Positions 3,928 to 64,000 of a stretch of DNA of 64,000 nucleotides are shown here, piece by piece. The notes beneath the pieces are model-generated. The model worked only from the letters and a program-made list of their open reading frames with translations. It was not told the origin of the DNA and made no database searches. The translations under genes were made by a program, and so were the position numbers. This DNA is from Moniliella sp. 'wahieum' (lineage: Eukaryota), in contig RSEE01000045.1 of assembly GCA_003971905.1 (NCBI GenBank), forward strand, positions 62,001-126,000, written 5' to 3'. Each line of letters starts with the position of its first letter. The stretch's first letter is position 1.

Positions 3928-5072
3928 GATGGCGGGGAAGAGGAGGGCGAGCGGCTGGGGCGATGGGGGCGAGCGGGAGGACACGGCAGGTAGGGGCCAG
4001 ACGGGAAGAGGAGCGGGTATGAAGACGCCGGGGCGGGACCCGGTGGGACCCGGTTGGGCACAGGGCAGGCGAAGGCAGGCGAAGTGTCAGTAGGGTGCGT
4101 GCATTATGCATCAAATTGCAGCGGCCCACCGTGACAGATGCAACCCCCGCCGTCCGTGGCGAAGGGCAAGACAGATGCGAAGACGGGGCAATATGCTTTG
4201 TGCTGTTCTAGGGGCGATCGCAGAGGGGGCTGGTGCCCCGACGGCAACAATGCACATCTCAGCCCGATGATCGATGATTAATGACTGATCGATCAGGTCG
4301 TCAGAATCGATCAGGCCCAGGGCCGAAGCGTGCCGCCCCTCGCCGTGATGCGCTCAGTACACTCAGTACTCAGTCTGAGCGCTGCTCAGTCATTCGGTCT
4401 AGGAAAGCTAGTAACTAGTAACTCAGTAGGCAGTCGGAGTACTGCTTCGTATCGCCAGTGCCCAGCGCCCAGGACGCAGTCTCTCAGTACTGAGACACCG
4501 TCCCAGCGGAGTGTGGATTCGATCAATATGAATACGAAATTTGAAGACGCGTTGCGGCTGCGACACGGCACAGCGCCTCCGTGCCGCATGGTTCCCCCCA
4601 GGCACCCAAGACCCCAGCCAGGTCTGCTGCGGTGGGCGACGTGCGGGCCATGGCGCATTGCTTTTGATGACTTGTCGATGGTCGCTGTCGGTGACTGTCC
4701 CGGCCTCTTTGGTCGCCTGCTTTGGAGCATGGGTCCTGATCTTGGCCGGTGCCGAGGACTGGTCATGGGATGGGCCAGACGGCAGGCTTGCCTCGTAGCT
4801 ACTAGCTCCGACTGGTTCCGCAGGAAAGCTACTGCCTGCTACTGCACGTCACAAGTCACATGCACAGCGGAGCGCGAGCCAGGAGTGGGCAGCAGCTAAA
4901 AATGCGCTCACACCACCCACCCAAGACGCACAAAGCTTGCCGCCATTGGTGTATGGCAGGCCTGCGTTAGGAAGCAGATGTCTGATGTCTGATGCATGAC
5001 ATGAAGCAAGAGTGCGTGCTCAGTTCTTGCTTACTAGGTACAGGGTACGTACACTGAGCGCGAGCCGAGCAT

Positions 5073-5101
5073 TGAATATTGACATGTGACATGTCAGTAC
5101 T
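5073..5101. promoter_or_regulatory. Representative heptad palindrome array TGA-ATAT-TGA-CATG-TGA-CATG-TCA-GTAC (putative regulatory element)
   Basis: The pattern is read directly. The regulatory role is inferred from the positions of related arrays upstream of genes. Confidence 0.5.
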
Positions 5102-8100
5102 GCGTTGCGGCCTGTTGCGGCCCGTTGTGCGTGTTGCGGCAGACTGGGGGCTGCTGTGGCAGCCTGTGGCAGCCTGTGACAGTCCTGCTGCCCAGCCACA
5201 GCGGGGCAATCCACCAGCTGCTTTCAGATCCCAGGATCTCACATGTCACATGTCACACCTCTAAGCTTTGCAACTGCACCCCCGCCTTCCCCCTCTGCGT
5301 GGCTGGGGTGGAGCCAGTTGGACGTGCTGGGCGTGCTGTGGCGTGCCTTGCGCTGGGCCAGTCGGGCCCCTTGTTCTGTGGCTCCATGTCCCAGACGGCT
5401 TCCTTCAAGCTTCACGCAATGCAGCACATGCGTCGCACGCCAACGACGTTGCCCGTCCAAAAGCCAAATTGGGTTCATTACAACGCCGAAGCGCAGCCAG
5501 GGCTCTCCCCATTTCAATTGAAACCTTCGGAGCTTCGGCGTTCTTTAGAGTACGTTCTCTACTGAGTCTACTGAGTACTAGCCTGTTGGGGTGTACACCG
5601 GTTCTTAGGCCTTGGGCTTGGGGCGTAATGCGTACGCGTTATGCGCTTCGCCTTACGCCCGTACAAACCTTAAATGCAGCGGCTTGCCACACCAAGTGAT
5701 AATAGCCCTCTGCCGCCAGCGGGAGGAATGGGCCCACCCGCGACAGCCTTCGGGGTGGGTGGCGCCGGCTGGGGTTGGCGTGGGAACGTAGAGCTTGAAA
5801 GTTGCGGTGTCTGTTCCAGATTTTATGTTGCCTCCGTCAGCGAGTGCAACAACGCAGCCCGTTGTGGTGGGTGTGTACATTTTAACACTGGTACATTTTA
5901 ACACTGGAATTCGAGCAGGGCCCATGCGGGGGAGAGGGTGCGTGGCCAGAGGCAGAGAATCGTAGTATGCAATGGCGGCCAATCACGCGTTGGCATAGTC
6001 GGCCACAGACGGCGATTATCCAGCCGCGCCTCCACATTCTCCGTCAAATACACACACCGCCACCACCCCCTGCCCTCTCGCCCACGTTCTCATCCAAGCA
6101 GTGCTTAATATTACATGGAACCACGTGCCGGTCTCCCAAGCATAACACCGACATCCAATTGGACGGCAACAGGGAGTGCCTCATGTCAAATTACATCTCT
6201 TCTTTTGCGTACTTCGACTAGGTCGGGGAATCCAGACAGCTTGATCTCCCCGTCATGCATCCCTCCGGCTCAGGCGCGAAGATTGCGACACGTTTTTAGC
6301 GATCTGTCCGCTCATTCCCACTGTCACATGTCACATGTCACATGTCATCGCACATAAGTATGCGTCCCACAAACAAACTCTCTCCGTGTAGGTACACGAC
6401 CGGCGGAAGCCGTAGTGCCCTGGCTCACACTCAGACCATCACGGAATATTGATTGACTGCTCCACCAGCTCCACCTGTTTGCCTATAACCCCCCCCCGCG
6501 CGCGGCACACCCACACCATATATGCAGGTATTAACGCCCAGGAAGAGCTCAAAGAGCAGCAAATGGGAATGGTGGTCGATGGAGATCAAATTGCTAAGGC
6601 GGTGGCGAATCCAAGTCATCATGGAGTCGGAAACGCCACGTCAGAAAACATCACACGCGCATCACACATGATGTCACTCGGAAGTGACCTTGGCCATAAA
6701 TGACCAGAGGTCAACAGCAGGACATGCACAGTGGTCTGTGCGCTGTAGTCGGTATTCAATAGCTCCCACCGCTCTCGCACGGGGCACAGCTCACACAGTA
6801 TATTGTACCATTTCACCTTGTTCGGTACCGCCAGTCAGTCGGAATGCTTTTGCGTCTGACGGATCCGACATCCATGTCACATGTCATGGGTCGATCACAC
6901 ACTGCGCAGTTGTCGCCTCTTTTTGCGTCGTTACTTTGGGTATTTTGCCCTCATCGCCCTCATCCCCAGGGGCCTGTGAGCACCCTGAGAACCCTGACGG
7001 CCTGAGCCTCACGCCTCAGGGAAAAATCGCAGACCATCGAGGTCCTCGTTCAGCGGACCATCAGCGTTCAAGCTGTGCATCACTCCCCAGCGCCCCTGGT
7101 ACCATTTCCAAGGAGATGCGAGAACATCTCCGAGTATTCCTATAGTGTTCCTTCGAAGGATCTGAAGAGAGTTACCGATTACTGGATACCATCGTCACCG
7201 TCAACGGCCTCTCGGCTCGACATACATATTGGCAGCATATATCTCCCCACTCAGCTCAGCTGAGCGATCAGGTTCCGCGCTCTGGATGTCTTTCCCTCGC
7301 TCGGCACCAAAATGCACATGTCTCCCTCATCTTATTTCGACATACGAAAAGTACCATGAACATGTTGGGTGAAACCCTTTTACAACGTGAGTGTGGAGCA
7401 TGTGGATCCTGGGAAACAAGTCCCTATATAACCTTACTAATGTATTGGCACTATGAGCATCTGTGTCAGAGTTCTCAATACTAACTTGCTACTAATACTA
7501 GGCCGAAAGGGCAAATGGTTGCGCCTCTGCTCTTCGGCTTTCCTTTGTCCATAATAGTCTGGCCGATATTGTCTGACTCACCTTTTTTTCCCCACCCCCG
7601 TCGCTTCTTTTCTTGTCTCATGCATTATGTCTTTTGCTCTCAACTAATATAAAAGTACGCGACATGTATCTCGCTCCCTCACGAAGACCTTACAAAATCA
7701 GCTCGCCTCATATAGCATAGAGGCATCTGTTCTTTCTCACACCTTATCTTGGCTTTTTGGACAATGTTATACAACTTCCTTTTAGCAACAGGCTCCATGA
7801 CGATCAATGATCTCGATCATCATCTGACCCATTATGCATTATCTGGTATCTCCTGTGGGGACCGACGCTTTTCCTTATGTGGCCCTACAGTAATTGAACG
7901 AGGGCTCTCTGTCCCTCTCGTGTGCCGAGCCCAGGACAAACTCACCTAAGAGTACACACAGATTACAGAGGATTACCATAAACGAGGAGACCACCGGGCT
8001 TACATCTGCGGGTCTGCTGGGGCTTCGTCCCAGTCTCTGTCCTCGTGCTGACGGCGACGGCCGGCGGCCATTTTTACCTCCTTCGTCCACCGTTGCATCG

Positions 8101-8705
8101 TCTACCGTTCCATCGCCCACGCTGTCCACCGTTCCAGCATGCAATGACATAGGTTATAAGATTACATCCTATTCGCGGCTGTGGCGTAGCGCGCTCATGG
8201 CTAATCGAAATTTCTGGTGCACAATCTTGTGGGCCTTGCCCACCTTGAATTTCGTACGTAGTCCTCACCACATATCTATCCGGAACCTTGTTACCGGCAT
8301 TTTCGATTAGCTATGCTGTTGCGGTGTCAGTATTAGGAGCAAAGAATGGCAATCAGTAGCAGGAATGCGTGCCTAGAGTGACACTCAGAGGTTCAGGTGG
8401 CCGAAAAGCTGTACAGCCTCAGAGCGCATTTCGTGCTTGAAGCTTAACGTGTGTCATGACATGGAGAGGAAGGCCTGTGTTGTCGATGGATGGCAACCGC
8501 CTAACCCTTTTGGTTGCTTCTTTGTCCGGGAGCCCGTCTGGTGCTGCTCTTGGCTAGGATAGGCCGCCGTACTTAGTTACCTTTTCATCGTTGATCTGTC
8601 CTCTCGTTGAGATCTTCGTTAATCGTAGCCACCGAAAGCAGATATGTGCAGCTGCCGCACACCGCCTTCCATGATACAAGAACGTACATGAACAGGCGCG
8701 GCAAC

Positions 8706-9310
8706 TGTTACGGGGCGCATCGGTTATCTCCGGACGCTGAGCCCCGCATGTCGTAGACATCACCGCCCAACCCACGTCATCCCCCGTCTACCCCCGTCTA
8801 CCCCCGTATACCCCCGTATACCCACGTCTACCCACGTCTACCCCCGTCTAGGCACGTCTACCCTCGTCTAGGCACAACGTCTATACTCCCGACTTCCATT
8901 CACTCTTCACCCTCATACGCTTACGAATTTACGACTTACGTCGAGCACTCAGCAAGCCGCGGTACTCTCATCAGTAGCGCTTGCTCTTCTTTAGGACTCT
9001 GTGTTCCCGCCAACTACAGCGTACCGAGTGTGGTAACGCCGGGAGGAACAGAGTAACTTGGGAAATCCTGAATCCCTTCAATTGGTCTTACGACTTACGA
9101 ACACGGCTCCTACCTCGGAGGGTCTGAGCTGTGGCCTTTGCACGCAGGCAGCCACCCAAACTAGAGGGTCTCTCCCTCGCGTCTACCTCCGCTCGGTTCA
9201 ACCAAGATATGGAGCAGGACCTAACGTACGAGCCACCGATTGATCTGTCCAAGGGTTTATACCCCTAAACTACAGAGGGGCTCCCACCTCGGGACCCCCC
9301 CCCCATGACA
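8706..9310 (+). mobile_element. Solo LTR (605 bp) with perfect 5-bp target-site duplication GCAAC
   Basis: Begins TGTTACGGGG (8706) and ends CCCCATGACA (9310), giving TG..CA ends with an imperfect terminal inverted repeat. GCAAC at 8701-8705 and 9311-9315. Homologous to 29170-30033. Orientation inferred from the TATA in the second copy. Confidence 0.9.
8781..8882 (+). repeat. 10-bp minisatellite (CCCCCGTCTA)n, about 10 degenerate units, inside the solo LTR
   Basis: Direct reading: cccccgtcta cccccgtcta cccccgtata cccccgtata cccacgtcta cccacgtcta ... Confidence 0.95.
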
Positions 9311-11322
9311 GCAACACACCCTGTCCACACTTTTGACCATCATATATTATAGTATCTGTGAAAGGTGTGCGATGTTTGGGCAACGCTCACGCGCCCACGC
9401 AGCGAGATCGCCCATAGATTTACGGAATACTACTCTGCAAGCCCATCCAAAGAGACCTCTCCACCTCTCAAATGTCACTTTTGTCTCGGGGAACAAGGAA
9501 GTGACCCCCCCCCCCCCGCGGCACAAGAAAAAGGTGCTTCATGATCACAACACCATCGACCACACAAACCCTAGTTTCTGCACTGCTTCTGCTCTACTAG
9601 TCAGCACTCTTTCACACAGCTGGTATATTATGTGTTTGCGAAAGGATAACGACAGAGCGAGGATAGACGCTAGGCCATGGAGATACATGTTGGTGAAACC
9701 TGCCCTACTTTGTGATCCATGCTATCCGTCGTATTGATCATTGGTCACGACGGCGAGATCTTTTTCGCTGGCACAACTGTGTGCATATCTACCACCCACT
9801 CGCGTATACCTCAGCGATTTCGCAATTCAATCTTTGCCTAGTCGTCCATCTCTGAGGCCCTGAGGGCTTTTGGTCCTCATCCACATCAGCGCTCAGCATA
9901 CCCACTGCATACTCCGCAAGCGTGTTGTGGCCAGGACGAGGGGGTGACTAAAGGGCATGGTCTACTTGACGTACGATCCGCTCAACATTCTGTATTCACT
10001 CGAAAAGTAGACGGCCGGCGTTTGGACGGTTGTGTGGGGTGCCCCGGTTCCCACATTTGAGCCACACTCGACCACAAGGGGGTACGGTGTAGCCTGGTGT
10101 AACTGCTGGGTAGAAGCCATCCGAATGTCGACTCGGAAACCTTGCCCTTTTGTTCCCGCCTGCATCGGCACTGCTCACACTTTTGGTTTTTGATTGTGCA
10201 TATGCTGCATGATATACCTGCCCCTTCGCTCCCTTCTTACAACGACCCTCGTGCTTCTCGTCGGACCGGACACTGCTGGGCCCAAATAAGCCGCCAATTG
10301 AGCAGCGTGCATGCGTGGTGGGCGTAAAGATTGCTTTTGCCTCCTCTGCCAACAGCCGTCTCTCCCATCAGGCTGGACTCAAGAGTAGGATGGAAAGCAG
10401 GTAGAATAATTAACCGGTTCGCTGCATAGTTGCATCTGCATCAGCCTCGACGCCAATCTCGGTCTCGTGGCCACTGAGATCAGAGATACTGTTGACAATA
10501 GCTCACCGACCGCACAAACAACGCTAAGCCGGCATAGTACATTATAGTAGTCCCCTTGTCCACCTAGCGCCCAACTACATTTGCGATGGGCACACCAAGG
10601 CAAGCCGGGATGTGGATTCCCTTTCGTTAGCGGGTCCTACTTAGTACTGGGCTGGAGTGAGGATGGAACTATGGCTGCTCGGCTCGGTTCTGCGATTCAC
10701 AACGGTTGCTGCACACTCAATCTGCTTCCAGCATCGACACCATTGCGCCTGCTATTAATCTCGGACCATGATCAATGCGTATGCATGCAAGAAAATCCCA
10801 GGGGTGCTAAGTAGCTTGGGTGTCTCTCCCCCTCCCCTGCTCTCCCTGCATCATCTGAGATCAGCAGGATGCATCAGGGGGGGAGGGGAGGGGAAGGGAG
10901 GGGCAAGGGAGTTTGGGCCATACGAGCGGGGGGGGGGGGGGGGGGGCATGGGGTACAGAACAACAAAGTGACGGCGGGCATGGCTTCGGGGGGGGGGGGG
11001 GAAACCATATCGCCGCGGGGGCAAAGAGGGTAAGGTACGGGTGCAGAGGGCCGGGAAGAGGAGGACGGGTTGGATTGGACCGAGTCCCCTGGAGTTAGAA
11101 ACGGGACAGGGGCCGGGGGGGGACGGAAGCAAAACCCCGACAGCCAAAGCGAAAGCAAAAGCGAAAGCGAAAACGAAAACGAAAGCAAAGGGGAATACAA
11201 AAATGGTTCAGTTCAATGACAAGGTCAGCCACACGTGAAGCGTGGGGTTTTGGTACAGAAACCGTCCCCCCCCCCCGCTCACAAACAAAGGTGGTCGACG
11301 GAAGGAGATAGACAGAGCAGTC

Positions 11323-13721: not shown

Positions 13722-15784
13722 GCAGTGGGGATTGCGCGGGCGATGGCGCTGGGGAGGCGGATGCAGGCGGAGGCGGAGGCGGAGGCGAGCGAGGGAAGGC
13801 GGGGCTGGGCAGCCTCAGAGTGCCGAGGACGGATGCACGGGTGGGTGGTTGAGTTGAACGTTTGTTTATCAGACTCCGACTCATTTGCGCTTTTCCAGCC
13901 ACAGTCGCTAGCTTTCGCAGCGAGTGACTAGTGCCTGGAACACGGGCAACCCTACTGTGCAACCCTAGCGCGCATCGGTGGCCCCACTTGAAACGTACAT
14001 CCAGCAGGTTGGCAGTGTGCTGGGCATGTCATGTGCATGTCATGCATGCAGTCTGTGCCTGGTGCACTGCCACTCCCACTTGGCCTGGCATAGGCTCGGG
14101 GCCGCAGCAGGTGCGATTTCACATTGGAATGGCTGGTACCGACAGGCCTGACATGTGACACGTGACAGATAGCATGCGGCCGCTCGCCAGGCCCCAGCAC
14201 GCACCAGCACGCACCCGTCTGCACCAGTCCAGTCTGTCTTCGCCGGTACTCCGTTGGACGCTGCATCAATCATTCATCATCCCATGCAGGGCAGGGCACC
14301 TGGCCGGTGTCCGGGCTGCGCTTGCATGCGCGTATGCACCGTGCAGAAATGCGCCTAATGCTGCCCAGCCGGCCCAAAAAGGCCAGCCCGGCCCGGGGGT
14401 ACTGTGCCTTGTCTTGGCACCGGCATCAGTCATTTAATCAAGCATCGTGCATCTTATCCGGCGCAACACTTATCGTCAGGGCGAGGGACTACAGATCTCA
14501 CACCATGCATCATGCATCACGTAATCGATATACTCCGGCTCAGCGCGAAGGCGCGCAACCGCGTGATCGCACCCGGATCTGGCTCGAAGTGTTCGACGGG
14601 GGCCAGCAGGGGCCAGCAGGATTGGTTAACAGCAAGGCAGGGCACAGCAGAGAGCAGGTGGGGTAGGGTCTGGTGGGCTGGTGGAGCTCGTATGTTCACA
14701 CGCTTACATGTCACACGAACGCTGGAAGAGGCAAGGCAAGGCCTGGCAAGGCAAGGCAAGTGAGTGTGGCAAGGCTCCCGCGATCGGCTCAACAACGAAC
14801 GCACAAGTTGAGCGCTCGTTGAGCACTCAAGTTGAGTTCAACGTTCAAACTTCAAGCTTCAAGAGATCAGAATTTGGGCCGTGGCGCGTGGCAGCGTTTG
14901 CGCTGCCACAGGCTGAGGCTCAGCCACTCAGCCTCGCCTCAGCGCCAAGCATGAATCAACCCCATTGATCCTCAAGTCGAGGTAGGCCAATGCGCTGATG
15001 TGGTGTCGCCTGATATAGATATCGCCTAGCATCGCCTAGCCTACACGCATATGGGAAGCACGGCGCCAACCCACCCGTGGCGGGGCCATAGGCGGTCACA
15101 TGTCGCAGCGCGGCCGGTGCGAATGGGGCGGCATTCGTCAAGTGCGGATGGCACTTCGGCTGAGCGCAGCAACGAGAGAAATTGAAATTGAATTGAACGT
15201 TGAATGTTCAGTGTTCAATGTCCAGCTGGCTATGTTGAAATTCAAAAATGAAATCAGTGAAATACAACTCCGTGTAGGCGATAGCTCGAACTCCCCTGTT
15301 GGGAATTTTGCGGACATAAATATCACAGTCGCTCCCACGCTCGGAGCGACGCGAATCCAAAGGGAGACCAAGTGGCCGAACCCCCGCGGCAATCTTCTAG
15401 GTCGTAGCGGTCGTAACCGCGTAACCGGTAACCGGTAACCCTTCGTGACCGCGTGACCCAGTAACCGGCGTAACCGCGTAACCAGCAACCCTGTACCTGC
15501 CCGTAACGCGTAACGCGTAACCCAGCCTATAGCCCGAACCTTTTTGTACCCCAGGATTATACTGAGAACATGCCCAGGATTTGAAAGGTTGAACGCCCAG
15601 CTGGAGTGTTGCTGTCATGTACGTACGCGGACCAACAAGTCAATTGCTCATCAGAACCTGCTGAACCCCAGACGCTCGCGGCGCCACAGCGGGGTTTCCA
15701 GCACAGAAAACTTCCCATTGGCACCCAAGTGCTGGCCGCCGCTTTCTATCCCCGCTCCTTCTACTCGACTGCCACCAGCACCTG

Positions 15785-20180: not shown

Positions 20181-20543
20181 GGGTGGAGCCACCGACGACA
20201 CATCGCTCCTGGTGGGTGTGGTAGGACGGTGGATGGGCGGCTCGAGGGGGCGGGCGAGGGTGGGCGCATGGCCGGTGGGGCCTGTGTGTGTTGCTCGGCA
20301 TGACGATGGCGGCGACCAAGAGCGTGAACAGGAGGTGGTGGTGGCGGGAGGGCACGGGGCCTGGAGCTTCATTCAGCCTGGAGCCTGAAGCCGGAAGCCG
20401 ATCCTTACGTGCGGAGCGCACGACCCGAGCGAGCTGGCGAGCACCGATGGGCTGCGCCTCGTAGAAAATACACGAGCACCCCTCGCACTGGAGCAGCGTC
20501 CGCTCCGCCACCCTCGTGCTGCAAGAGGAACTAGCTCGCAGCA

Positions 20544-20571
20544 TGCATCATGCATCACGCGTCACGCGTCA
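20544..20571. promoter_or_regulatory. Heptad palindrome array upstream of KRE6, including two MCB-like ACGCGT
   Basis: TGCA-TCA-TGCA-TCA-CGCG-TCA-CGCG-TCA. Confidence 0.5.
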
Positions 20572-20983
20572 CGCTTCTTGCCGCCAGCCGCAAGCAAGGC
20601 TCGGGGGCTGTATCTCGCCGAGTCGGATCGCCTCGCTGCCTTTTTCGACCTCTCGGAGTTACAGGTTGCCATCCCACGCGTTGGACTTGGACAGCGTTGC
20701 AACCTCTGTGACCCATGTGACCCTGCTTGCTGGTCGATGATCTGCATATCAATCTACACCCACCAACCACCGCCACCACTGTCACATGTCAGGCTTGCCA
20801 CGGCACATGCGCGCCAATCGGGCAATACCGCACTTCTATCTATTGTACTGAGTCCCGAGGCAGACAGCTTCCTCCGCACCTAACCAGCAGCGGAGTGATC
20901 TCTCGCGCGTTCTAAAAGAAGAGCCGGCCAGGACGCTCCTACTATACAGACCAAAACTCATTGATGCGCATGGCATGGCGTTC

Positions 20984-22693: not shown

Positions 22694-25600
22694 CTTGTTG
22701 CTGGTGGTGGGTGCAACGTCACGCTGGAGACTTGGTCCAGCTAAAGAAAATTAAAAGGGCTGGTCTCAGGTGCATTTTTTTGCACCGATGCGCCACGAGA
22801 AAGGCTGAGCGCTGCTGAGCGCTGGCACATGACGGATCACGTGCCACATATGTCTTGTCACATGTCACGTGTCACGACGTGCAGCCAGCCGAACTTGAAG
22901 TTTCAAATATCTCATCGCTATCGGCGCCATCGGCTGGCGCTGGTCTTCACTATCTTCGCTACTGCACTTTTTGCGGCTATATAAATACACCTGTTTCTAT
23001 AGCTAGTTTGGTCCCCCGCACGAGTACTTGTACGGTGTCCACTAGCCACTAGTGTTGGAGTGTGGTGGGATGTAGCACTTGATCAGCCATGTCTCTGTTG
23101 GTAAGCGGAACTGTCTACAGAGTTCCACGACTCGCCCGCTAGGTCGGACTAGCGTGATTAGCTTACGAGAAACAGTGCAATCGTCTTTAGCTTGGTAACG
23201 TAGCTACTTCTCAGTTGACGGACAACCGCGGTTCTGGGCTCTCTTCATTGGTGTGACCGATTTATCGCGCTCACCCATTGATCTCTCCCAGTCTAGAGCT
23301 TCCCCCTAGCCCTCATTCTTTCAACTAGTATCTGGTTCAGCTTCTGCTTTTGGCCTCGGAAACACATCCAAACGGACTCTGCAGCGGTGGTGGTGTGTAT
23401 ACTATAGCGTTTGACATATATATATATATGGCGTCTCTCTTCTCGGAGACAAAGGGCACGCCAGGGAAAACACCCTATAGGCGAAAATGAAGAATCCATC
23501 AGTAGCATGATGTGACGCTGTTTCACGGGCGACTCCGGAAACTTGCTTCGCATAGGAAGAAGGGGTAAGTCCGTGGGACTCCTTGCTGAAAGACAGAGTG
23601 GCATCCACTTTGAAGCATGTGTGGGCGTATATAGCTGTGGGAGTAGTGTTCCATTGCACAATATAGTATGTGGCACCAAACGGAAGACGGATCGCCGGAG
23701 AAACGAGACAGAGAATACGTGTGGTGTAGTAGGTAGGGTCCATGCGGGAGATACTTGACGGCCACACTGGAGACTACAGGGACTGTCGGCGTCGCGAAGA
23801 TGTTGCATTATGAGGGGGTAGCGCGGGACACTTCTCTCATGGCTCTCGGCGGGCGAGGTTGAGGTGAATGTCACTGGGAAATGCCACGTATTTCCCAAAT
23901 GTATCCTGATTCATGAGCATGAGCAGCGTGTGCCTTCAAGTTGGGGGCCTTGCTAGGTGCACTCCGGTGAACCGTTAAACGAGAGGGACTGGAAGAATTG
24001 AAGGATGGGTGATGGGCTTGCTCCACTTCGGTCTGGCAAATCACAGCCATCACGGGTTTTTCACATGCCCACAGAGCGCGTCCACACAAAGATGGCGTGC
24101 GTGACAGAGCACACAGTGTAGTGTTCGCGAGTAAGTACTAAGTCAACATAGGAAGGATACTAGGAAGATCAGGCCGGTCAGATGCCGCGGTCAGGCAAGA
24201 TTGATCCAGACCGTAGAGTAACTGCGTCCCTTCCCCGATTTAGTGGCGAACACAAGTAGAGATCTCCTGGTCCAGAGGGGTAAGCCGCAGGCTCTGATCT
24301 TTTAGTCTGTCTAAGATCTAATGAGAGCACGTCAATGCAGCCACTTTTCGCCACCACATCAGTCATTCCCAAAGAACATCACAATGTGGGGGAGATGCAG
24401 CTATAACGTCAGATTTTGCAGATTTGGCTTTTCGAGCAAGCGCCGATTACATGTTACAAGAGGATGATCATCTCGATCATCAATCAATCGATCATCCCCA
24501 CACAGTATCACAGGGGCACACCAAAGTCCGTTCTTTTCGCCTCCGTCATACGAAGACTAGTAATGTAAGCAAGCTGCAGACACCACACACCACCAACAAC
24601 ACTGTTAGGAATATATCGATGCCAAGGCCGGACCGTAGCCTGATGGTGGTCTGCCCGCGGGGTTTATAGGAGGAGTATCTCACTGAAGGTCCGACTGGCG
24701 ACAGTTAAGTATACTTTAACTGGACTGGTGGTGAGTCCAAGCGGGAATACGAAAAGAGGTCAAAAAAGAGACGTAATATGGACTCCGCCAGGGGCTCGTG
24801 CGCTCATCATCACCTCCCGATCCGTCTTGGGGAAGAGTTTGTATAGTGTGGCGGAAAAGACCTTGTTGCGGAGATGCTCTCATCGTCATTCACATGCCCA
24901 CTTTTTCACACGACCTTTTGTTTGGAAATGAGAGAATGGCGTGAGCCAAGAGAGAGGGTGTTGATATCTGTGTGTGCTGTTGGCGACGGAACGTCATTAA
25001 GATAATTGGCATCCTGATCAGTGGGGGGGCGAAAGCTGACAGCAAACGCCGGATGAGCGACCCTAGTTTAGCAGAGGGAGCGACGGGCATCTTCGTCCCG
25101 GCGCTGGAGTTTTTGCAGTAGGTATAGTGCAGCTCTACTCATTTCGATCTTCTCACAGACCTCATTCATTGCCCGTATAGTCGACGATAGAGAGGTCGGT
25201 GTTGTACCTTCGCGGGGTAGTAACCACGCACAATGTATCATCAGGCCTCAGATTTCAGAGCCTCACTTCCATGTTTTGTTCTCCCCAAGAGGCTGTTTGT
25301 CAACGCTGGCAGAGCACATGTCAGCCGCTCAACAGCCACCAAGTTCATATACCAACTGCGTTGATGGCATGTGCCATGTGCATGAACGTTGAACGTTCAA
25401 GTTGAACATCGACCGCATGCAGAAACGCCCAAAACGGGGGGGGGTGCCGAGGTGTGATTGGATTCTAGGGGTGGGTGGGGGTAGGGAAGTCGGAGGGTCA
25501 AATCTGAAAGCACGAACGTACAGCCGCGCCCCTCTCCACAGCCTTCCCCAGCTCGAAGGCTCAAACGTTCAAAAACGTCAAGCATCAAGTGCGTGGCCTA

Positions 25601-27419
25601 TTTCATGATGCATGATGCATGATGCATGATGCATGATGCGATGAAGCTTGCAGCTAGCTTGCAGGCTGGCGCCATCGATCAGATCATGCATCATGCATTA
25701 TGATCGACATGATGGTGTGCGTTCCAGTGCGATGTTGATCGATGATCGATGATAGGTTGGCGGTACGCGGCACAATCGACCACTATACACTATTGCAAGT
25801 TGCCGTGTTTGCCTCCCCTTCGTCTTGTGTCAGTATGTCAGACAGGCACGCAAGCTTGAAGCTTGAGGCTTGACTCCCTAGTGCTGGACGTCGGTTTGCC
25901 AAGAAATGCGTGTACACTACTCAGATGCCAGCGTAGCCATGTGACCTGTAACCTGGGTGCACGTGACCAGCACCTCCAAGTACCTGCCCCCCCCCTTTGA
26001 CATTGTGCAAATACGCTGCTGGCTCCTGTGCGGGTGGGGCTGCGGGATGTGGGCGCTCAGAATGTGAGGTCATTGACATTGACATGTTGGCATCCGACCT
26101 TCCGCCATCTACCGGCCCTACTCCCTTCCTGTGATTGTCATGCCATCTAGTGAGTCAACAGCCTCTAATGCAGCATTTTCACAATATTCCGCTCTGGCGC
26201 AAATCATGCGTTTTTCCATTGGTGACTAGGGTGTTACAGTCTTGGCAAACGACGAGCTTACAGGTGGCATCTTGGCGCAAGGCATCTCGGCAAAGTGTTT
26301 GTGTGCGTCTGAAAAAGTCGTTGGGCCGCGCTCTGCGGCAGTCTTCCTCTTCTCTCCTTCCTACCCCACATGCTCCTCTCGGTATCGATGTGCGATAGAG
26401 GGCGTTCGCCCCGTAGCTGTTGTGATCGATGATCGGAACGATGATCGATGCGACGATCTTTTCAGCTCCGAACGGGGGGGGGCAATTTGGGCGGGCACGC
26501 GGGCAGGATGTATAGCTGCGAGATGCCCTGGGATGCGCCCCACTGGGATGTCTGCCAACACATTTTTGTCGAAGAAGGTGACGGTAGTCACCTAGTCACC
26601 ACAGGCAGTTGCTAGTCAGAATCCCAGCTCCATTAATTGCCGTATATGGCCAGAGGGTAACCAGGGTACTAAGTACTAACCGGACTATAACTGCGGGAAG
26701 TAGAAGGTCGGTAACCACGAGATCCGCTTGTGCCGATGAGGTCGATGATCGATGTCGATGAGGTCTTAAGCAGGTCGAACGAGGGTGAGTGCAGATCCTT
26801 AATGATTAATGACAGGTGACCTATGCGACAATCCAGACCGTTTGGGGGGGCTGGGGTGGCACTCTCAATGGTAATCGATAAATGATCAACGTGATCAAAG
26901 AGTGACTAGTGACTGAACTTCAGGCCTGAGCGCCTGAGCCTCAGGCCTCAGGCTTCAGGCTGAACGTACTGAGTAAAAGAGAATTCGGGTGTGCTTTTGC
27001 ATGCTGTGTGCACATGGGATGGGTCGTTCAAAATGGGGAAGGTGATCCGGTGATCGTCACTACGTCACCTTCTTTGAAACGGGGTTGAAAGCCAAGAAAG
27101 GGCTGAAATGTTTGCTGTTGGTTCTACCTGCGGCCATATGCATCCCCCTCGAAAATTTTGGATGTGATGATGATCGTGTGACCATACGCAGCACATCATC
27201 AAATGATAGTACATTGGCCAACCCCCCTCTTTTTTCTTCCGAAGGTAGCATGTCGAAGTTAGTACACAGCAACATCCCTTTCAGGAAGGACATTGCCCTG
27301 TCCAAACGTGTATATATAGTCTACAGGGCTCCACCCACATGCCATTCTCCTCATCCCCACCTGCACACTTGGCCTCTTCCCTCCTTTGCCTTTGTCGCCT
27401 CTCTTTCCTCTCGTTCACC

Positions 27420-28945: not shown

Positions 28946-29169
28946 CACGTCTTTTTCTTATCCCGATCACTTCACTCGTTCAGTTGCTTCCCATTCGAGT
29001 TGGCTTGATGCAATAATATGCGGGTACCAAATGGCACATGGGGTAGCACTACCGCCGTCAGTGCAGGAGCGGGGACAGATTGCACATGGAAAATCACTGA
29101 GATGGATGGCTCAGCACCCATGCTGTTGGAGACGGGGCATCATCATGCATCACAACCCACCAAAGACAA

Positions 29170-30033: not shown

Positions 30034-32011
30034 GACGAGAGGCACCTCGCCCTCTGCTCGACCGGCACACTGCGACGGGGTATTGGAGCGACAGAGATGC
30101 ATCGAGGAAACCGCATCAGCACCACACACATCGTCGTCGTACGATACACTGGAACGTTCATCGTGCTACCTGATGAGACCTGGAGTCCTGATGGTTCTCG
30201 AGGGTGATGCAATCGCACTGGTGGTGGTGGTGTGGCAACCAGCAATGCCCACAGAGGAACATCAAGCAGCGAGTCGCCATCAGGGGCTAAGCGGGACAAG
30301 GGGGAAAACAGGAGAGGGGAAACAGCGGAACTCCTATTAGGCCTGAGTAACCCAACCCTAGCTCAACACTACCATGCTAAGCGCTAACCCTCCCCCCCAT
30401 CCGCTGAGCGTGAAGACGTGGCTTGACTATAATGTGTTGGGCATACCGCAAAGTCCCTTCCGACTGTGTTCTTCACCGCTCCACCGTCGCAACCCCCCCC
30501 CTTGTCGCTGGGGATGTGACGATGACCATCCCGACTGCCGCATTCGCTTTCAACAGCCACACAGGAGCGCTGAAGCGCATGTGCGTTTATACTCCTCTGA
30601 CTGCCAAAAGCCTCTTTTTCAGTTTATTGACGATGCATGGAGAACAGTAACTAGTAATACCCGCGCTACTATCCGTTATCAACCACCGCTTATTTGCCAC
30701 CACAAAACGTGGCATATATGACGTTGACCACATCAGGGTTCGTTCAGGTCGCAGGACTCACCGTCCGTGCGGTTGTGCCCCTTCAAGCTTCACCCCTTGC
30801 TCGTTGCGGTGTAGAAAAATAGGTAAAAGCAAAAATTATAGACGTTTCAGTACTATATATATAGGCTCTGCGCCTCTCGACTAATATTCTCGCTGCCTTC
30901 AATCGGCTGCTGCTCACATGTCACACCGTTTGCTGCAGTATAGAAGTTTTGTGCTTCTCCACAGGCGAGCGAAGCAAAGCCCGTTGATAGAGGTGATGAA
31001 TCTATATATATAGATCCTATAATACATACACCTAGGACGACTCCTTGGGGCTTGACCCCTTCACCAGCAAAAGATCATCGAGATTGACGCAGCCGTGAGC
31101 TTCTGCGTCTATAGAATGAGGTTAATGAGGGAGGCGCATAGGTAAAGCTTATACTACTACTATAGAACGGCAAAATGACATATAGGAAAACGCTTTATCG
31201 CCCACACTATATATTGGTCTCGCTCGTCCGGAATTTTGTTGCGACGAGGACAAATGAGTTGCCTATCGTGTGGTGCACCTCTGCCTGCAGTGAGGCGCGC
31301 GTGGCCATATATACGTCCCCTGCAGCTGCTCTCCCCCGCAATCGATCGTTTGATATGCGTTTCGCTCCTCTGTTGTGTCTCTATATACGCTTTTTCCAGA
31401 GTGTACACAATCCATTACTTTATTCGTGGCTACGCTAAAGGCATGGCCAGCATAGGTGAACGTGTGGACGCGGTAGTCCAACACGGACAATCTCAGGCAT
31501 GCATCTTTTGACACGGGGGGGTGTCGACAGAGTTTGTTGCGCTTGGCCAGGGAGCGCTGACTTGGCCTTATCAATTATCGATCATCCACCGCCGTTTGAA
31601 CGAACGGCATTAGGAGGTGACATTGACACCCGCTCACGTGCTGTATAGTCACTGGGTACGCTACCCATCATCCTTCCTCTTGCGGCGTGGAGAAGCACTG
31701 TTCCCGAGGGCGTCCTGCTACCCTTATGATATGCAGCGTGTCCGGCGGCCTTCGCGGGGGCTAGTTTGACGTTGATGACGACGACGGGGCCGTGCCCAAC
31801 ACGCTTGCACATCTGCTGCATGTATGTAAGTGTGGCGTACGGTGGAGGATGGGAGGATTGGATGGATGGGGTGCGCAAGGGATGAGAGAGCCGTCTGCCT
31901 GTCTGCGATGGGGTGTGATTGCGGGGACGGCGGGGGGCAGAGGGGCATGCTGCGCCGGGCGTCTGCGGTGTCCCGCCATGCGTGCGGCGCTAAGCAGGCA
32001 GCGGTGAGGGC

Positions 32012-37145: not shown

Positions 37146-38246
37146 AGTGTCTCTCTGGAGAGCACCTTACTTCCCTGGCCCTGTCCCACTGGGTGGCGCC
37201 CCTGGCGTGCCCGGCTAGGACCTGTGGCCGTCCATGTTCTATGCCACGCAACCCCTTTCATGTCGGTCTGTCGAGCTGAACGTTCATTCTGTTACCGTTG
37301 TGCTCGTAGTCCGCCCGGCATTTACCCTGACATACTTGCATAGTACCGCTCTACTCTCCATCGGCTGGGACTTCCCCCACAGGATATGACGTCTCCCTCC
37401 CCACCCCCCTCCCAAGCCGCACAGGCCTTTTAGTGGAAAATGGGGGAAAAGAGGGCGGGTTGTTCGGTGGAAGTTCCCCACGTCCGTGAATCAGGACCGA
37501 GTGGTCACCGCGGTTGTGGAGAGGCTACAGCAAAGAGGGGCAGCGGGAGACAAGTATGGAGAGCCTGAGACGATAGCCCAGGAGTGGCGACCCGATCACG
37601 GAGGTGCGGGGCATAGAAGCTGCCTGGCGATCATTGTTTCTATCCCTTTGCGATTCCCCGCATCCCACCCGACTAGTTAGGACCAGCCTGCCCATCCACA
37701 TGCATCTGGCCAACTTGTCTTGATTGAGAACCTGAGCTGCGGATATACTCAGGCCCAATCCCGCTGTGGTTATATTGATTGCAGCCGAAGCTGAGCCAGA
37801 ACGTGCTGAGTGGCGCAATGCGGAGAGAGCAGGCGAGTTACAAAGCTGGGAGCCCGCGTCGTCGACAATGAGCGACAGAACCCAACGGGGTGGGGGGGGG
37901 AGGGATACGGGCGCAGCCATGCTGCTCGTGTTGAGGATGTCTGCCCAGTCTGCGGCGTATCCCCTGGTACAAGGCAAGTGCGAGCGCAGGTACAGGGGGT
38001 TGAACGGTGTTGGACGGGAATGGACACAGGAATTATACAGGTACCCGTGGGGTGGAGTGCAGCCTGGTGCCGCGCTGGGGTTGGCGGTTAGCGCGTGACG
38101 CGTGAGGCGCGAGTGCTTATATTATAGCAGCAGCCATGGCTGCAAGTTTAAATCGAGTTGGTTCGACGTGTTCAACGTTCAACGTTCAACCTCCTGGCCG
38201 CCACCACCTCGCCCCAGCCCCTGGAGCGCCTCCACTTGTGCTGGGC

Positions 38247-39730: not shown

Positions 39731-40458
39731 CCATCAAATTTTCCATGTGATCGCATGCACCTGGCCATCCACTGCATCATTTCTCATCATTTTCAACTTT
39801 GTTTTTGCTTCAAGCTTCAAGCTTCCAACGCTTCATCCGCATTCCATTTGCCTGATCGGTCTGGTCTCTCTGCCCACTGTTACTTTTATCTCCTCCATCC
39901 AACGGTTCTCCCCCCTGCCCCTGCCTCCCCTCGGCTCAGCTCTGCCGCAGGACACAATTTGGCCGTCTGATTCTTTGGCGTTTTCCGGCTCTCTCTTTGC
40001 GTCCCCTCTTGGACTGCTTCATCCCACCCCACCCGCCCCTTGGCCACAATTTCGAATTGTAGGATTCAACAAGTGATGCATACGCGTGGGACATTCCTCC
40101 TTCTATAATGTCAATCCATGACTTATGACCGCCATCAACCGTTTGACGATGAGACATCAACCGATTCCCTTTTGGGTGATCTACCCAGCCCACAGCCAGA
40201 TAGGGGTAGCTGCCCCCCGGCTCTGAGGGCTACCGCGAGAAACATACGGGATGCATATGAAGGCGTATCTTCTGTATACACTCTGTATTCAGTGTGAGCT
40301 CCCATGCACCGGCTCGCTGCTAACTACGCATGGCTAGGGACTTGATATTTGACGCGAGCTGGGCGGACGTAGGATCGCAGCCCGCGCCAAGTAGATTAAT
40401 TTGCCCCGGGTAAAAGTATTGCTGGGATCGGCGGAAACACCAGCATCAAAAAAAAAAA

Positions 40459-40530
40459 TGCCTCCTAGCCGAATCGAACGACTAATCTTCGCATTACGAG
40501 TGCGACGCCTTACCATTGAGCCAAAGAGGC
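40459..40530 (-). tRNA. tRNA-Thr(CGT), intronless
   Basis: Reverse complement GCCTCTTTGGCTCAATGGTAAGGCGTCGCACT-CGT-AATGCGAAGATTAGTCGTTCGATTCGGCTAGGAGGCA folds as a cloverleaf. An oligo-T Pol III terminator follows (A-run 40448-40458 on +). Confidence 0.95.
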
Positions 40531-42505: not shown

Positions 42506-43057
42506 GACAAAAGCAGGCGTGGCGCATCCTCGTCCTTTTCTGGCCTGGGGCTTCTCCACCCTTGGGTCACTGATCATCTCCTTCTAGATTGTCGAGACGC
42601 CCCCAGGGGGGATTAATTGTAGGCGGACTCAACCAACTTGTGCTCATTTTTGCTTCATCCACCGCCCCGGGGGGCTCGCGCCTGGTAAGCAGCGTCTACG
42701 CATAAGAGGCCATGTTGGGTTGTGTTGGATTGCGGCGCAGATGGCCACCATGTGCGCGTGGGTTGGCGTTGCCAGCATGCCGTATCCTCACCTACGTCGA
42801 CGGTCAGCCCCGCCGTGCTGGTTGGCCGGGGCGGTGGCAGGCATGGCTCCTACTCATAGAGGGCTCGTAACGCGACACGTGTCGCTTACTGGGCTTAGCG
42901 CTTACCGCGGAGGCCATCCGATTTCAAATTGCAACGCTGAACGTTGAATGTTGAAAGTTGAAAGTTGAAAACGCGAATGCGAAACGTTCAACTGCGCAGC
43001 CCTTGTATACTGGTCCTGGCGAACCCATGGGATGTCTGCTACCATCATACCAGGGCC

Positions 43058-52943: not shown

Positions 52944-53522
52944 GGCGAGCGCGGGGGGAGGGAGGAGGAGGGGGCGCAGGCGGACGGAGCAAGGGGTATG
53001 CGATGGCGATGGCGATGGAGATGGCGATGGCGATGGCGATGGAGACGGAGATGGAGGTGAGATGGCGACGCAGAGCGATCGCCGCCCGCCCCCCCGTTGT
53101 GAACGTCTACGCCGATGCCGCCGCCAACGCCGCATCCACGCGGTGAGTGAGCTGATGGCCGCTGATTGATGGCTGATTGCGCTGATTGAATACTGAGGAG
53201 GCCATCGATCAGCGGCTGTCTGACCGCTGATCATCCACCCACTCCGCCGCCGTCGCTCTCTCTCCGCGCCGGCCAGGGCGAAAGTTGAAATGTGACACGC
53301 AGGGTGGGCTTATCTAATCGCATGCACAGCCCAGGCTGAGTCTCAGCGCGCTGAGCTGATCGCTGATCATCGATCACCCCACTTCACGCGAATACTCAGC
53401 CCCAGGCATGGCACATGCATGCCGCCCCTCCTTGCACCGATGTTCCCCGCACGAGTGTATGCGGGGGGGGGCGGTGACTCTGAAGCGCTCGTCCAGGTCA
53501 CCTGCGCTGCCCTCACAGCCCT

Positions 53523-53553
<31 letters not shown>

Positions 53554-61600: not shown

Positions 61601-63341
61601 CCGAGCATTTGCACCGGAAGTTCCGAAAACGAAGTGAGGGAGTTGAACAGAAGCATCATGAACAGCGCACCGCCACGGGTGAAGATGCCCGAAGTGAGTT
61701 CCGGTTGCTTGAAGAACATACCACCAGCAATGAGGGCAATGATGGTCGAGGTAACGTACGACATGAAGATATCAAACGGATCACCGAGCTGCATCTGCAT
61801 TTGGCGAATAAAGATGGCATGCACCTGCAGCGGGTAAGAGACGACATACTTAGACCTGGACGAAACACCGGCGTGCTTCTGATCCTTGACAGCAGCACGG
61901 AACTCGTCCTGGTTGACCTTGAGCTCAGCCTGAACCTGAGCATCGTAGTCGTCCCGGTCAGACAGGGTACGCTTGTAAATGTCGCTAGCTTCGAAAGCAG
62001 CCTCCATCGCCTCGGGCGTAGTGGGCACAGTGGCCGGGTCGACGCCCTTAGCAAAGGCGCGGGTCTGGGGGTCCGTGCAGGAGGTGATCCAGTCGGCCGA
62101 AGTGGACCGCGGGCGGTCGAGGAAGCCCATGTTGATAAAGTACTGCCGGGCCTCGTCCCGCGGGCCATAGTACATGCAACGGCCCTCGTCAATGACAAGC
62201 ACCTTGTCACACTGGTTGAAGATGCCCTCGGAAGCCTGGTACACCGTCACAAACGACGTGGTTTGAGTCATGTCGGTCAAGATACGAATCGACTTGGCAT
62301 AGTCCAACGCCGTCGAAGCGTCCAGACCACGGGTGGAGTTGTCCCAAGCCATGACAGAGGCGCCGGCCGTCAACACCTCCAGAATCGACACACGCTTCCG
62401 CTCACCCCGACACACCGCGGACGGTGGCCGAACCGACAAGGGTATCCTTGGTGTGCGAAATGTTGACCATCTTGAGAAGTGTGTCGCGCATCATGGCGCG
62501 GAACTCGGCCCTGGTGTACCCAGGCAGGGGGGTGCGGTGGCTCTTAAGGCGCAGCGCAAAGTCAAGCGTGCGGCCGACAGTAAGGGTGGCAAGATGGTTG
62601 TCATCCTCCTCCGAATACAGGACTTCACCTTGGTAGCGCTTGCCCATTTCCTTGGCGGGAATGCCACCATAGGAAACCTCACCGTCCACGGCAATAAAGC
62701 CTTCCCGACGGTTGGCAATCGACTGAAGGAATGGGAGCAGCCAGCACCGGGGCGACCAATGACCAGCACCATCTCACCAGGCCGAGCACAGCCTTGGAAG
62801 TTCTGGAGAATGAAACGCTCCTTGGGAGCAAAAGGGTCGTAGCCAAACAGCTTGCACAGGTCGACAAGGGGGCCAATAACCTCAAACAGAGCCATCGAAG
62901 GGATGGTGGGCACGTTCATGTCGGTACTGCTCGGAGCGGGACGGCAAGATCATGCCAACTGACACCAAGCGCCTTGCGCTTCCACCCGACCGACTCGGCT
63001 TCGGGCTGGATCGTGCCGATAAACTCGCGGAGGTCGAAGGGGACATACTCGTCCGCATCGGCAGTGCCCCCCGCCGCCTTCTCCACATCGGTCGCCTTGA
63101 CATTTTTCGCTCTCCTCGAGGGCAGTGGCATTACTGGAACGACGAGTGTGGGTGGTGCGGCCGCCGGCCGAGGTGACGCGGGTAAGCTCGGCCTTGGCAG
63201 CGTCAACGTCCACGTGGTGTTCGTCGGCGGGGGGCTGTGGTCAACGTAGGGGTGGGTGTGGCCATAGTCGCGGTCGCGGGCGGCCACGTTGGCCGACTCG
63301 GCGTGGATGCGCGACGAGACGGGCGCGAGATCGACACCCAT
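58621..63341 (-). CDS. Full-size PDR-family (ABCG) multidrug transporter, Snq2/Afr1-like; introns and frameshifts
   Basis: NBD1: [43 protein letters not shown]2: [43 protein letters not shown] loop motifs ALMINEF and WRNIGI. Ends [13 protein letters not shown]. Confidence 0.96.
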
Positions 63342-64000
63342 CGTGGCGGGATGGGCGGGGAGGGGCAAGTGAGGCGGGGGTGGGGCGACGGGGAGGGAAT
63401 GGGATCGGCGAGGGCCGGAGTGCGGGCGAGGGCGTGGGATATATACGGGAGCGGGCGCGGGCAGAATGCACATTCGGCAGCCAAAGCACCGCCGGGGCGT
63501 CGTGCTGCGGGCTGCGCTGTGCTGCCTGCCGTGCCCTGCGTCGCCGCGGCCGCGCCATGGACCGCCCGGGGCGACCTGCGCGCGTCGGCGGCACAACACC
63601 TGCCCCCGTGCGGGCCCCGGCCAGGTCACGCGTCACGCGTCATGCAGGTGTGCCTCTGCGCTGCCACACCGCCGCCACAGCGCCCCGCCGCCGCCCCCCG
63701 CGCAGCCGCCGATTCGGTTGGGCAGCGGGCTGCCTCTATGCCGCCCGCCGACACCTGCCCGTGGCATGAAACCAACACGCAGCAGCTTCTACGTTCCATG
63801 CCTCTCACGCGTCACTTGCACGTCACACGCTGCTCTGCAACGCTGCCTCTGCGCTGCGCCTCCCCCGCCCGCGGGCATCCGCGGCCCGCCAATCCCGCGG
63901 CGCTGCGGATGCTTTGCTTGGCACTGCCCCACTGCCCCGCAGGTTTTTCTCGCTGGCTCACGCTCTCCCGCTGAGCAGCACCCATTCAGTTCATGCCTTC

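Follow-up and report, generated by a model that had tools for sequence, protein, structure and literature searches.

Short-range template-switch mutations, which are reportedly associated with Loytynoja and co-workers, allow a few bases to be copied from the opposite strand in one event, with no dedicated element involved. The literature on these quasi-palindrome-associated mutations describes perfect stems that arise from a single event as well as multi-base compensatory changes (PMC8794818), and such mutations are reportedly also the subject of PMC7954356 and PMC3820800. The present analysis deals with a recurrent short element of partly similar appearance in a 64,000-nucleotide stretch of fungal DNA (Moniliella sp. 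'wahieum', contig RSEE01000045.1, positions 62,001 to 126,000 of the forward strand), the whole of which is referred to below as the window. The minimal element is the 12-mer x y T N A y' x' x y T N A, which has the structure R-d-R: a 5-mer R (xyTNA) is followed by d, the reverse complement of xy, and then by R again. As in template switching, a perfect short inverted repeat is formed from local sequence, and paired 'compensatory' changes are possible. However, known template-switch events differ in how long they are and where they fall, with no link to any trinucleotide, whereas here a 2-nt tract is always inverted at T-[G/C]-A and a direct re-copy of 5 nt always follows. Also unlike such events, the elements in the window have a fixed increment of 7 nt, occur at more than 100 times the chance density, and appear to be confined to one lineage.

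The footprints and targets of DNA transposons form a second group of comparable systems. Hairpin-forming DNA transposons prefer the 5' regions of genes. The canonical footprint of Tc1/mariner elements consists of TA, bases from the transposon end, and TA, a stereotyped short palindrome, odd- or even-centred and about 7-8 bp long, between duplicated target bases. The inserted bases are constant for each Tc1/mariner family, whereas in the window each site has its own, dictated by the flank. TNA is the target duplication of PIF/Harbinger and IS1031-type elements, and in their targets, as here, TNA lies at the centre of a short quasi-palindrome; their arms are specific and the duplication is 3 bp, whereas here the arms are free and the repeats measure 5 + 2 bp. 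Hairpin intermediates and end-joining footprints are described for hAT, Transib, RAG and a Mutator-like element in PMC5499845. In these footprints, and in the P nucleotides of V(D)J recombination, a target repeat likewise flanks a palindromic addition templated by the flank. Such footprints are heterogeneous, however, whereas the window holds a single enriched form, an asymmetric nnTSA target (S, G or C) and no associated element. Bacterial heptamer simple sequence repeats (SSRs), namely GGGAATC in Xanthomonas and GGGGA(C/T)T in Nostoc, share the period of 7, the non-coding location near gene ends and the variable copy number; each genome has one or two fixed G-rich units, for which G-quadruplex formation has been proposed (PMC4692102). 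The present pattern differs in being eukaryotic and in comprising many units that share just T-n-A and symmetry, mostly in 1.7-3 copies. Assignment to this bacterial class was rejected, given the many units and the fact that 52 of the 62 oriented array starts carry a single added unit. No description of the pattern was found in open-access full text or in bioRxiv; subscription journals were not covered by this search.

The 12-mer imposes nine constraints on the sequence and is present at 77 positions in 44 loci, while Markov-3 simulations of the window yield 0.2 positions; this count, like all others for the window, rests on 64 kb of one genome. Longer arrays have the form R(dR)^n and a length of 7n+5. 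Every element can be written as a plain 5-mer followed by seven bases that are predictable from it, two of them taken from the opposite strand and five copied directly. Fourteen different xy dinucleotides and 15 different spacers are in use, and T-n-A is the only sequence shared. An earlier note, prepared from the sequence of the window, had described arrays of heptamers, and this description has to be replaced by the 12-mer and its 7n+5 extensions.

The distinction becomes clear from the boundaries of the arrays. The length of the self-match run at lag 7 was measured for 55 distinct direct sites, bearing in mind that a tandem duplication requires at least seven matched positions. The run lengths have a sharp mode at 5 (18 of 55 loci), and the run is shorter than 7 in 29 of the 55. 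At 17 of the 18 loci with a run of 5, the match extends by two bases on one side only. The ends are consequently asymmetric: one coincides with the edge of a TNA, and the opposite one lies two bases further out. Of the 55 loci, 19 have the end pair (0,2), 4 have (2,2) and 3 have (0,0), and 76 of 110 ends lie 0 or 2 bases past a TNA. Direct sites with non-palindromic spacers, used for comparison, show a smooth decay of their ends. Duplication of a 7-bp quasi-palindromic target was discarded as an origin, since the (2,2) ends that it requires are limited to the 4 loci just mentioned.

The same rule emerges from direct repeats of R = nnTNA. A gap of 2 between the copies occurs 106 times, with the exact reverse complement of xy in 77 cases, as against 9, 22, 21, 34 and 13 occurrences for gaps of 0, 1, 3, 4 and 5. 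The arrangement in which the first two bases of R are inverted between two copies of R is enriched solely for R ending in T-n-A (44/65), and the mirror form solely for R starting with T-n-A (33/55); all remaining classes of R, when pooled, lie at the 1-in-16 expectation for a reverse-complement dinucleotide. Adjoining arrays with different spacers (5071-5100, 20542-20574) meet at their flush ends in a common TNA, as if a single trinucleotide had seeded one event per strand. Lone quasi-palindromic heptamers outside the elements exceed a Markov-2 model by just 12-24%, and the idea of separately enriched precursor heptamers was therefore dropped.

When the same core recurs at separate loci, the sequences around it are unrelated (nine cores, each with 2-11 positions apart from one found once), so the elements are not copies of a dispersed element; a dispersed repeat or miniature inverted-repeat transposable element was rejected on the same ground, as nothing is shared beyond the core. 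A recurrent core is TCACATGTCA, with 11 positions. Positions 14497-14521 and 20535-20559 share 25 nt at 92% identity around a common 16-mer (CATGCATCATGCATCA, then CG), which may be the sole case of similarity that extends a few bases past the element. The variety of spacers lies between loci, and the free spacer within one array to which the earlier note had drawn attention is a minor feature: neighbouring A-N4-T hexamers at lag 7 have the same palindrome in 19 cases and different ones in 5, and pairs of different hexamers number 0-3 at other lags and 5 at lag 14.

The excess of palindromic spacers that had first been claimed stands up well to 200 dinucleotide shuffles of the window, where palindromic 4-mers account for 5.96% of all 4-mers. 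T[GC]A-N4-T[GC]A occurs 121 times, and N4 is palindromic in 57 of these, the shuffles averaging 3.41 and never exceeding 11. For TNA-N4-TNA the count is 82 of 177 (shuffles: mean 6.76, maximum 14), with 67 of the 82 sites in direct, 8 in mixed and 7 in inverted orientation. All 22 coordinates originally named carry the pattern, although 22806 does so in part: its TGA-GCGC half is present, while the second triplet is TGC, within a 10-bp repeat. The original estimate of at least 12 of the 16 palindromic tetramers agrees with the 12 counted with T[GC]A and increases to 15 with TNA, AATT being the sole absentee. When X-N4-X is counted over 32 strand-merged triplet classes, palindromic spacers are found in 51 of 96 cases for TCA/TGA, in 16 of 23 for TAA/TTA and, weakly, in 12 of 63 for CCA/TGG, with no other class above background; the proposed TGA/TCA units are thus real, but the class also takes in TAA/TTA.

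The enrichment is restricted to a spacer of four bases (spacer 2, 14/46; spacer 6, 2/76; spacer 8, 0/60) and to one period. Exact tandem arrays of at least two copies number 43 at period 7, against 3.2 in shuffles, and 9 at period 8. The period-7 unit is a 6-bp palindrome plus one base in 29 of the 43 arrays (4.7 expected), and 26 of these 29 are of the A-N4-T type, in line with the earlier equation of the pattern with ANNNNT palindromes spaced by one base. No excess of self-complementary units occurs at periods 4, 5, 6, 8, 9 or 10; the counts of 20/86, 2/60, 0/9 and 0/11 for periods 5, 6, 8 and 9 are all at or below expectation.

To relate the sites to genes, the window was divided with a codon model self-trained iteratively on Pfam-supported exons, an approximate partition in which 42% of the window is coding-like. 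Outside this fraction lie 76 of the 82 palindromic sites. Three of the six sites inside it are probably misassigned because they lie upstream of a candidate ABC-transporter start codon. With each partition shuffled separately, non-coding-like DNA has 75 sites where the shuffles give 5.2, and coding-like DNA has 5 where the shuffles have a mean of 2.2 and a maximum of 7. By coordinates, no site lies within a Pfam-supported exon, and the site at 37277 begins immediately past the NAC open frame, whose closing codon is the first TGA of the site. Arrays are found 163-183 bp upstream of the HAS1 ATG (22693, minus), 57-134 bp upstream of the Zn2Cys6 ATG (43027, plus) and approximately 170-200 bp upstream of the candidate KRE6 ATG (20372, minus), and sites lie approximately 150-330 bp upstream of the candidate ABC-transporter ATG (63473, minus). 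The placement 60-600 bp upstream of genes and the avoidance of coding sequences, both asserted before, are therefore upheld for these four genes and for the window as partitioned. The sites cluster in the long non-coding-like stretches at 4.1-6.9, 14.1-15.5, 24.1-27.0 and 28.8-31.6 kb, and few are found in the gene-dense, GC-rich right half, where 43-64 kb holds five. An interpretation as three-frame stop arrays was rejected, as most elements have two TNA only and their orientation to neighbouring genes is mixed.

The distribution among other fungi was assessed with 80 control loci (549,814 bp), which are metagenome contigs with a match to the HAS1 exon at 55-85% identity and are mostly fungal-looking. 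They contain 6 perfect 12-mers, compared with 4.2 by chance. A palindromic spacer is present in 145 of their 1594 TNA-N4-TNA sites (89 expected), 35 of them direct, and a quasi-palindromic unit in 8 of 71 period-7 arrays, which is the chance rate; 1 of these 8 is of the A..T type. The pattern is also absent from the control loci that are nearest by HAS1 identity (83-85%). Measured against these 80 loci, it is not general to fungal intergenic DNA, and so it would appear to be lineage-specific.

The state of preservation bears on the age of the elements. In addition to the 44 perfect loci there are 28 separate loci with one violation (59 one-violation positions, against 7 in simulation), and this ratio suggests that the origin of the elements is recent or continuing. 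The middle bases of the TNA triplets are unequal in five cases, all of which are transitions, and at the 62 oriented array starts the middle base is C in 26, G in 20, A in 9 and T in 7. We take T[G/C]A to be the original form and TAA/TTA to be mostly derived. Paired CpG transitions connect some spacers with one another, for instance TCGA beside TTAA at 4268-4284. Strong CpG decay as a driver was dropped: the observed/expected ratio of CpG in non-coding-like DNA is 0.87, a mild depletion, and paired transitions relate some spacers but are not dominant.

The reading favoured here, with a probability of roughly 45%, is that the elements are scars of a lineage-specific templated insertion of 7 nt at xyT[G/C]A, followed by slippage in steps of 7, and that they are not binding sites. 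The two bases before the first TNA fix the variable part of the element, which argues for templated synthesis and not for recognition by a protein. Each element would have arisen as a single-step insertion. Synthesis, during replication or the filling of a staggered break, would reach the quasi-self-complementary T-S-A and leave after its A; y and then x would be copied inversely from the opposite strand, and synthesis would return to x. Arrays could then lengthen or shorten by 7, preserving 7n+5, while the middle base would drift through transitions towards TAA/TTA and CpG spacers would pass into other palindromes via paired transitions, for example from TCGA to TTAA. The process would be active, or tolerated, chiefly in open non-coding DNA near gene starts, and its by-product would be a continual supply of new 6-bp A-N4-T palindromes in promoters. 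The earlier note had offered a hairpin or template-switch process as one of two alternatives, and of these the anatomy fits it better than the factor reading.

Several points weigh against templated insertion. The insertion step is read from present-day sequence, and no ancestral or empty site was seen. Template-switch and end-joining events vary in length, so that a constant 2 nt at T-S-A is unusual, and the pairing available at T-S-A to support a switch amounts to 2 bp around a mismatch. The return jump has no microhomology that could be found; at most loci the left extension ends at two bases. About one third of the loci do not fit 7n+5 (lag-7 runs of 7, 8, 9 and 11 in 8, 3, 5 and 2 loci), and these need chance extension or slippage in another register. 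The preponderance of perfect over decayed copies would also be expected from purifying selection, the closeness of sites to start codons fits function as well, and the recurrent cores, such as TCACATGTCA, could come from selection or merely from the abundance of CA/TG dinucleotides. The rigidity of the event (2 nt, T-S-A, net +7) and its restriction to one lineage remain unexplained by routine template switching, a combination that suggests one particular enzyme or one geometry of the break. A more specific proposal, possible although doubtful, credits an Exobasidiomycetes-like fungus with a sequence-specific DNA activity, not described so far, that writes the 7-nt templated insertion at xyT[G/C]A in open promoter DNA; candidates for the activity are a nuclease, the enzyme of a cryptic mobile element, or a quirk of a polymerase or of repair.

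Since R-d-R is formally a 5-bp direct repeat with a 2-nt inverted copy of the flank, at all 77 positions, the elements could also be the excision scars of a DNA transposon or another staggered-break enzyme, with xyTSA as a 5-bp target duplication and two P nucleotides derived from hairpin opening on the xy flank. Transib and RAG transposition generate 5-bp duplications, and the palindromic target preferences of DNA transposons are reportedly the topic of PMC2577343. The location in non-coding DNA near gene starts would be understandable, as promoters would be struck as open chromatin. This explanation is nevertheless unlikely, because the expected spectrum of variants (0-4 P nucleotides, either flank, nibbling) is absent and the 2-nt form on the xy side alone is enriched. 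For R = nnTNA, a gap of 0 is found 9 times, one right P nucleotide 7 times, three or four P nucleotides never, and two left P nucleotides 11 times (7 of them ambiguous). Transposase dimers use targets with two-fold symmetry, whereas the target implied here, nnTSA, is asymmetric, and the window contains neither a transposase domain (176 open reading frames, ORFs) nor an element bounded by inverted repeats. Related proposals were rejected in turn: P nucleotides of variable length do not agree with the single enriched form, remnants of transposon ends would require about 15 families with differing terminal dinucleotides, and in hAT-type 8-bp targets (nTnnnnAn) the T and A positions do not fit.

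Selection of the elements as cis-elements is likewise improbable. Such elements would be read by a factor or chromatin organiser that recognises TGA/TCA at 7-bp spacing together with spacer symmetry or shape, or they would act through DNA or RNA structure. The general-factor alternative of the earlier note draws support from the sites 57-200 bp upstream of four start codons, and selection from the greater number of perfect than decayed copies and from the recurrence of some cores at many promoters. Some units also contain the known motifs ACGCGT (MluI cell-cycle box, MCB) or CACGTG/CACATG (E-box-like). However, the use of 15 of the 16 palindromic spacers leaves no conserved recognition sequence, and to our knowledge no DNA-binding domain reads symmetry without sequence. 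The asymmetric 7n+5 ends and the dinucleotide set by the flank make no obvious sense for binding, and the general factor is not favoured on these grounds. In addition, many well-defined upstream regions, such as that of the NAC gene, have no sites, the 43-64 kb region is sparsely occupied, and the pattern is absent from the 80 other loci that share the HAS1 gene. A structural function is opposed by the folding of five short arrays, which is no better than that of shuffles (z from +0.26 to -1.45); the inverted array pair at 25596-25710 (115 nt, z = -2.62) is the sole stable case among the folds tested.

Ordinary microsatellite behaviour, in which near-self-complementary heptamers slip via hairpins and chance seeds expand with no special enzyme or event, is quite unlikely. 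The window is rich in short tandem repeats (11 arrays each at periods 9 and 10, against about 0.1 in shuffles), arrays reach 5.1 copies, and the predicted folds consist of 5-bp stems with TNA triloops. Simple slippage would not, however, limit the self-complementary excess to period 7 or the enrichment to T-n-A junctions, as A-n-T, C-n-G and G-n-C are not enriched. The commonest form, the 12-mer with five lag-7 matches, cannot be produced by duplicating a heptamer and is scarcely expected by chance; the fold energies of short arrays are ordinary, and the ends keep the preferred register described above. Finally, a mixture of unrelated duplicated transcription factor sites (MCB, bZIP/cAMP response element, E-box, heat-shock element), suggested by units with ACGCGT, ACGT cores or CACGTG and by HAS1 and other growth genes nearby, is very improbable and already largely refuted by the specificity and anatomy counts, as a single frame (TNA, 4-base palindrome, period 7, R-d-R) spans 15 spacers and independent motifs would share neither the T-n-A junction nor the flank-set dinucleotide rule. 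The earlier contention that a few known motifs and ordinary slippage do not account for the pattern is thereby sustained.

The individual elements are listed below.

Table 1. Elements and arrays with palindromic spacers in the window (window coordinates; strand as given for isolated 12-mers).
Element	Coordinates	Strand	Remarks
Composite TGA-TCGA-TGA-TTAA-TGA, then TGA-TCGA-TCA	4265..4296		contains 12-mer GATGATCGATGA at 4266
ACTCAGT x2	4361..4374		14-mer matching the pattern in both orientations
CTAGTAA x2.3	4408..4423		TAA unit with CTAG
Composite, 12-mer ATTGAATATTGA	5071..5100		last TGA shared with TGACATG array, on into TCA-GTAC
TCACATG x2.7	5239..5257		19 nt = 7x2+5
12-mer CTTCAAGCTTCA	5403..5414	+	isolated
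TGTCACA x3.7	6322..6347		26 nt = 7x3+5
CATGTCA x2	6873..6886		
12-mer TGTCACATGTCA	14149..14160	-	minus-strand reading
CATGCATCATGCATCA	14504..14519		identical 16-mer at 20542
GTTCAACGTTCA, then CTTCAAGCTTCAAG	14836..14863		
GTAACCG x2.9	15421..15440		TAA + CCGG; within wider GTAACC-rich tract 15412-15521
CGTAACG x2.9	15502..15521		TAA + CGCG
TCA-TGCA array adjoining TCA-CGCG array	20542..20574		one TCA common; upstream of candidate KRE6 ATG
12-mer TGTCACATGTCA	20780..20791	+	isolated; just past last HAS1 exon (open frame 20839-21486, minus)
TGTCACATGTCA, then decayed unit (CGTG)	22856..22876		upstream of HAS1 ATG
TGAACGT x2.1	25383..25397		continuing into TCA
CATGATG x5.1	25604..25639		longest array; opposite inverted TCA-TGCA array 25683-25698
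ATCATGC x2.3	25683..25698		inverted partner of 25604 array
TGATCGA x2.6	25736..25753		
AAGCTTG x2.1	25852..25866		
TGATCGATGATCG	26423..26435		within looser TGATCGA tract
GTACTAA x2	26666..26679		
TTAATGA x2	26799..26812		
AGTGACT x2, then TCA/TGA-GGCC units	26901..26953		GCCTCAG x2.3
12-mer CATCATGCATCA	29141..29152	+	isolated
12-mer GCTAAGCGCTAA	30376..30387	+	isolated
12-mer AGTAACTAGTAA	30646..30657	+	isolated
12-mer CTTCAAGCTTCA	30781..30792	+	isolated
12-mer TGTGACATGTGA	30914..30925	-	isolated; minus-strand reading
CGCGTGA x2	38092..38105		
GTTCAAC x3.0	38170..38190		
GCTTCAA x2.7	39807..39825		19 nt
12-mer GCTTAGCGCTTA, then TGA-ACGT-TGA	42893..42970		decaying to TGAAAGT repeats; upstream of Zn2Cys6 ATG
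12-mer GATCATCGATCA	53365..53376	+	isolated; between opposite-strand coding-like segments
12-mer CCTAAGGCCTAA	58578..58589	-	isolated; minus-strand reading
GTCACGC x2.6	63625..63642		~150-170 bp upstream of candidate ABC-transporter ATG
TCA-CGCG-TCA	63805..63814		10-mer

The genes of the window were identified by Pfam searches of long, intron-split open frames and include KRE6/SKN1, a HAS1-type DEAD-box helicase, RhoGAP, NAC, a Zn2Cys6 factor, TRAPPC10, Ldb17 and a PDR-type ABC transporter. The overall G+C content is about 59%, with lower-GC stretches of little coding potential. The nearest named relatives of one ABC-transporter exon belong to Ustilaginomycotina, mostly Exobasidiomycetes: Sympodiomycopsis (66%) and Parajaminaea (64%) are followed by Exobasidium, Tilletiaria, Meira and Tilletia, and the best match overall is at 75%. 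No domain was found by ORF-wise Pfam searches in 114 ORFs of at least 70 aa from non-coding-like regions, so that the Cdc25-like, expansin and EamA genes named in the earlier note received no support there. Over these and 62 further ORFs (176 in total), the scan revealed no domain of a transposase or of any other mobile element, and the window shows no terminal inverted-repeat pair that bounds an element. The sole Rfam match at the gathering threshold in the window is a tRNA-Thr gene (anticodon CGT, 40459-40530, minus).

Other repeats are also present. Non-coding-looking sequence occurs twice, about 20.7 kb apart, at 8702-8761 and 29167-29225 (93% identity) and at 8901-9311 and 29615-30034 (84%); the parts are split by a 10-bp tandem repeat in one copy, and the sequence is dispersed or segmentally duplicated, with no obvious terminal repeats or target duplication at its ends. 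When these paralogous segments (8702-9311 and 29167-30034) were aligned to compare filled and empty sites, the alignable part contained no element. At 56150-56575 and 56593-57019 there is a tandem duplication of about 430 bp (83% identity) with 9-bp repeats (TCCCACCGC, about 31 and 14 copies), which is probably a repetitive coding or low-complexity region. A non-coding-like stretch at 28836-28945 holds 6.1 copies of an 18-bp unit, TTCCCCGACGGATACTCA, with 93% identity, and a 10-bp unit, ACCCCCGTCT, is present in about 10 copies with a 30-bp super-period (8770-8870). Non-palindromic tandem repeats of 9-10 bp in 2-4 copies lie in the same intergenic stretches as the elements (5104-5187, 14194-14229, 14599-14620 and others), and tandem duplications of short units are common overall in this genome's non-coding DNA. 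The tract at 15412-15521 contains GTAACC and GTGACC words at mixed spacings of 7-9 bp and obeys the 12-mer rule in parts only; it may represent a composite array that has decayed, or else another kind of repeat.

If the templated-insertion reading is correct, the elements constitute a clean and countable mutational signature of one fungal lineage, located near gene starts at more than 100 times the chance density. A comparison of genomes with and without this signature could then lead to the specific enzyme or replication peculiarity behind it. Palindromic promoter sequence suitable for dimeric regulators would then arise in single steps and not by point mutation, and it would become understandable why motif finders split these promoters into many unrelated 'motifs'. 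Should the elements instead be under selection, they would represent a class of cis-elements recognised by symmetry and not by sequence, which would be still more surprising. If a 7-nt writing activity does exist, the fungus would carry an inherent source of new promoter sequence that can be read from its signature.

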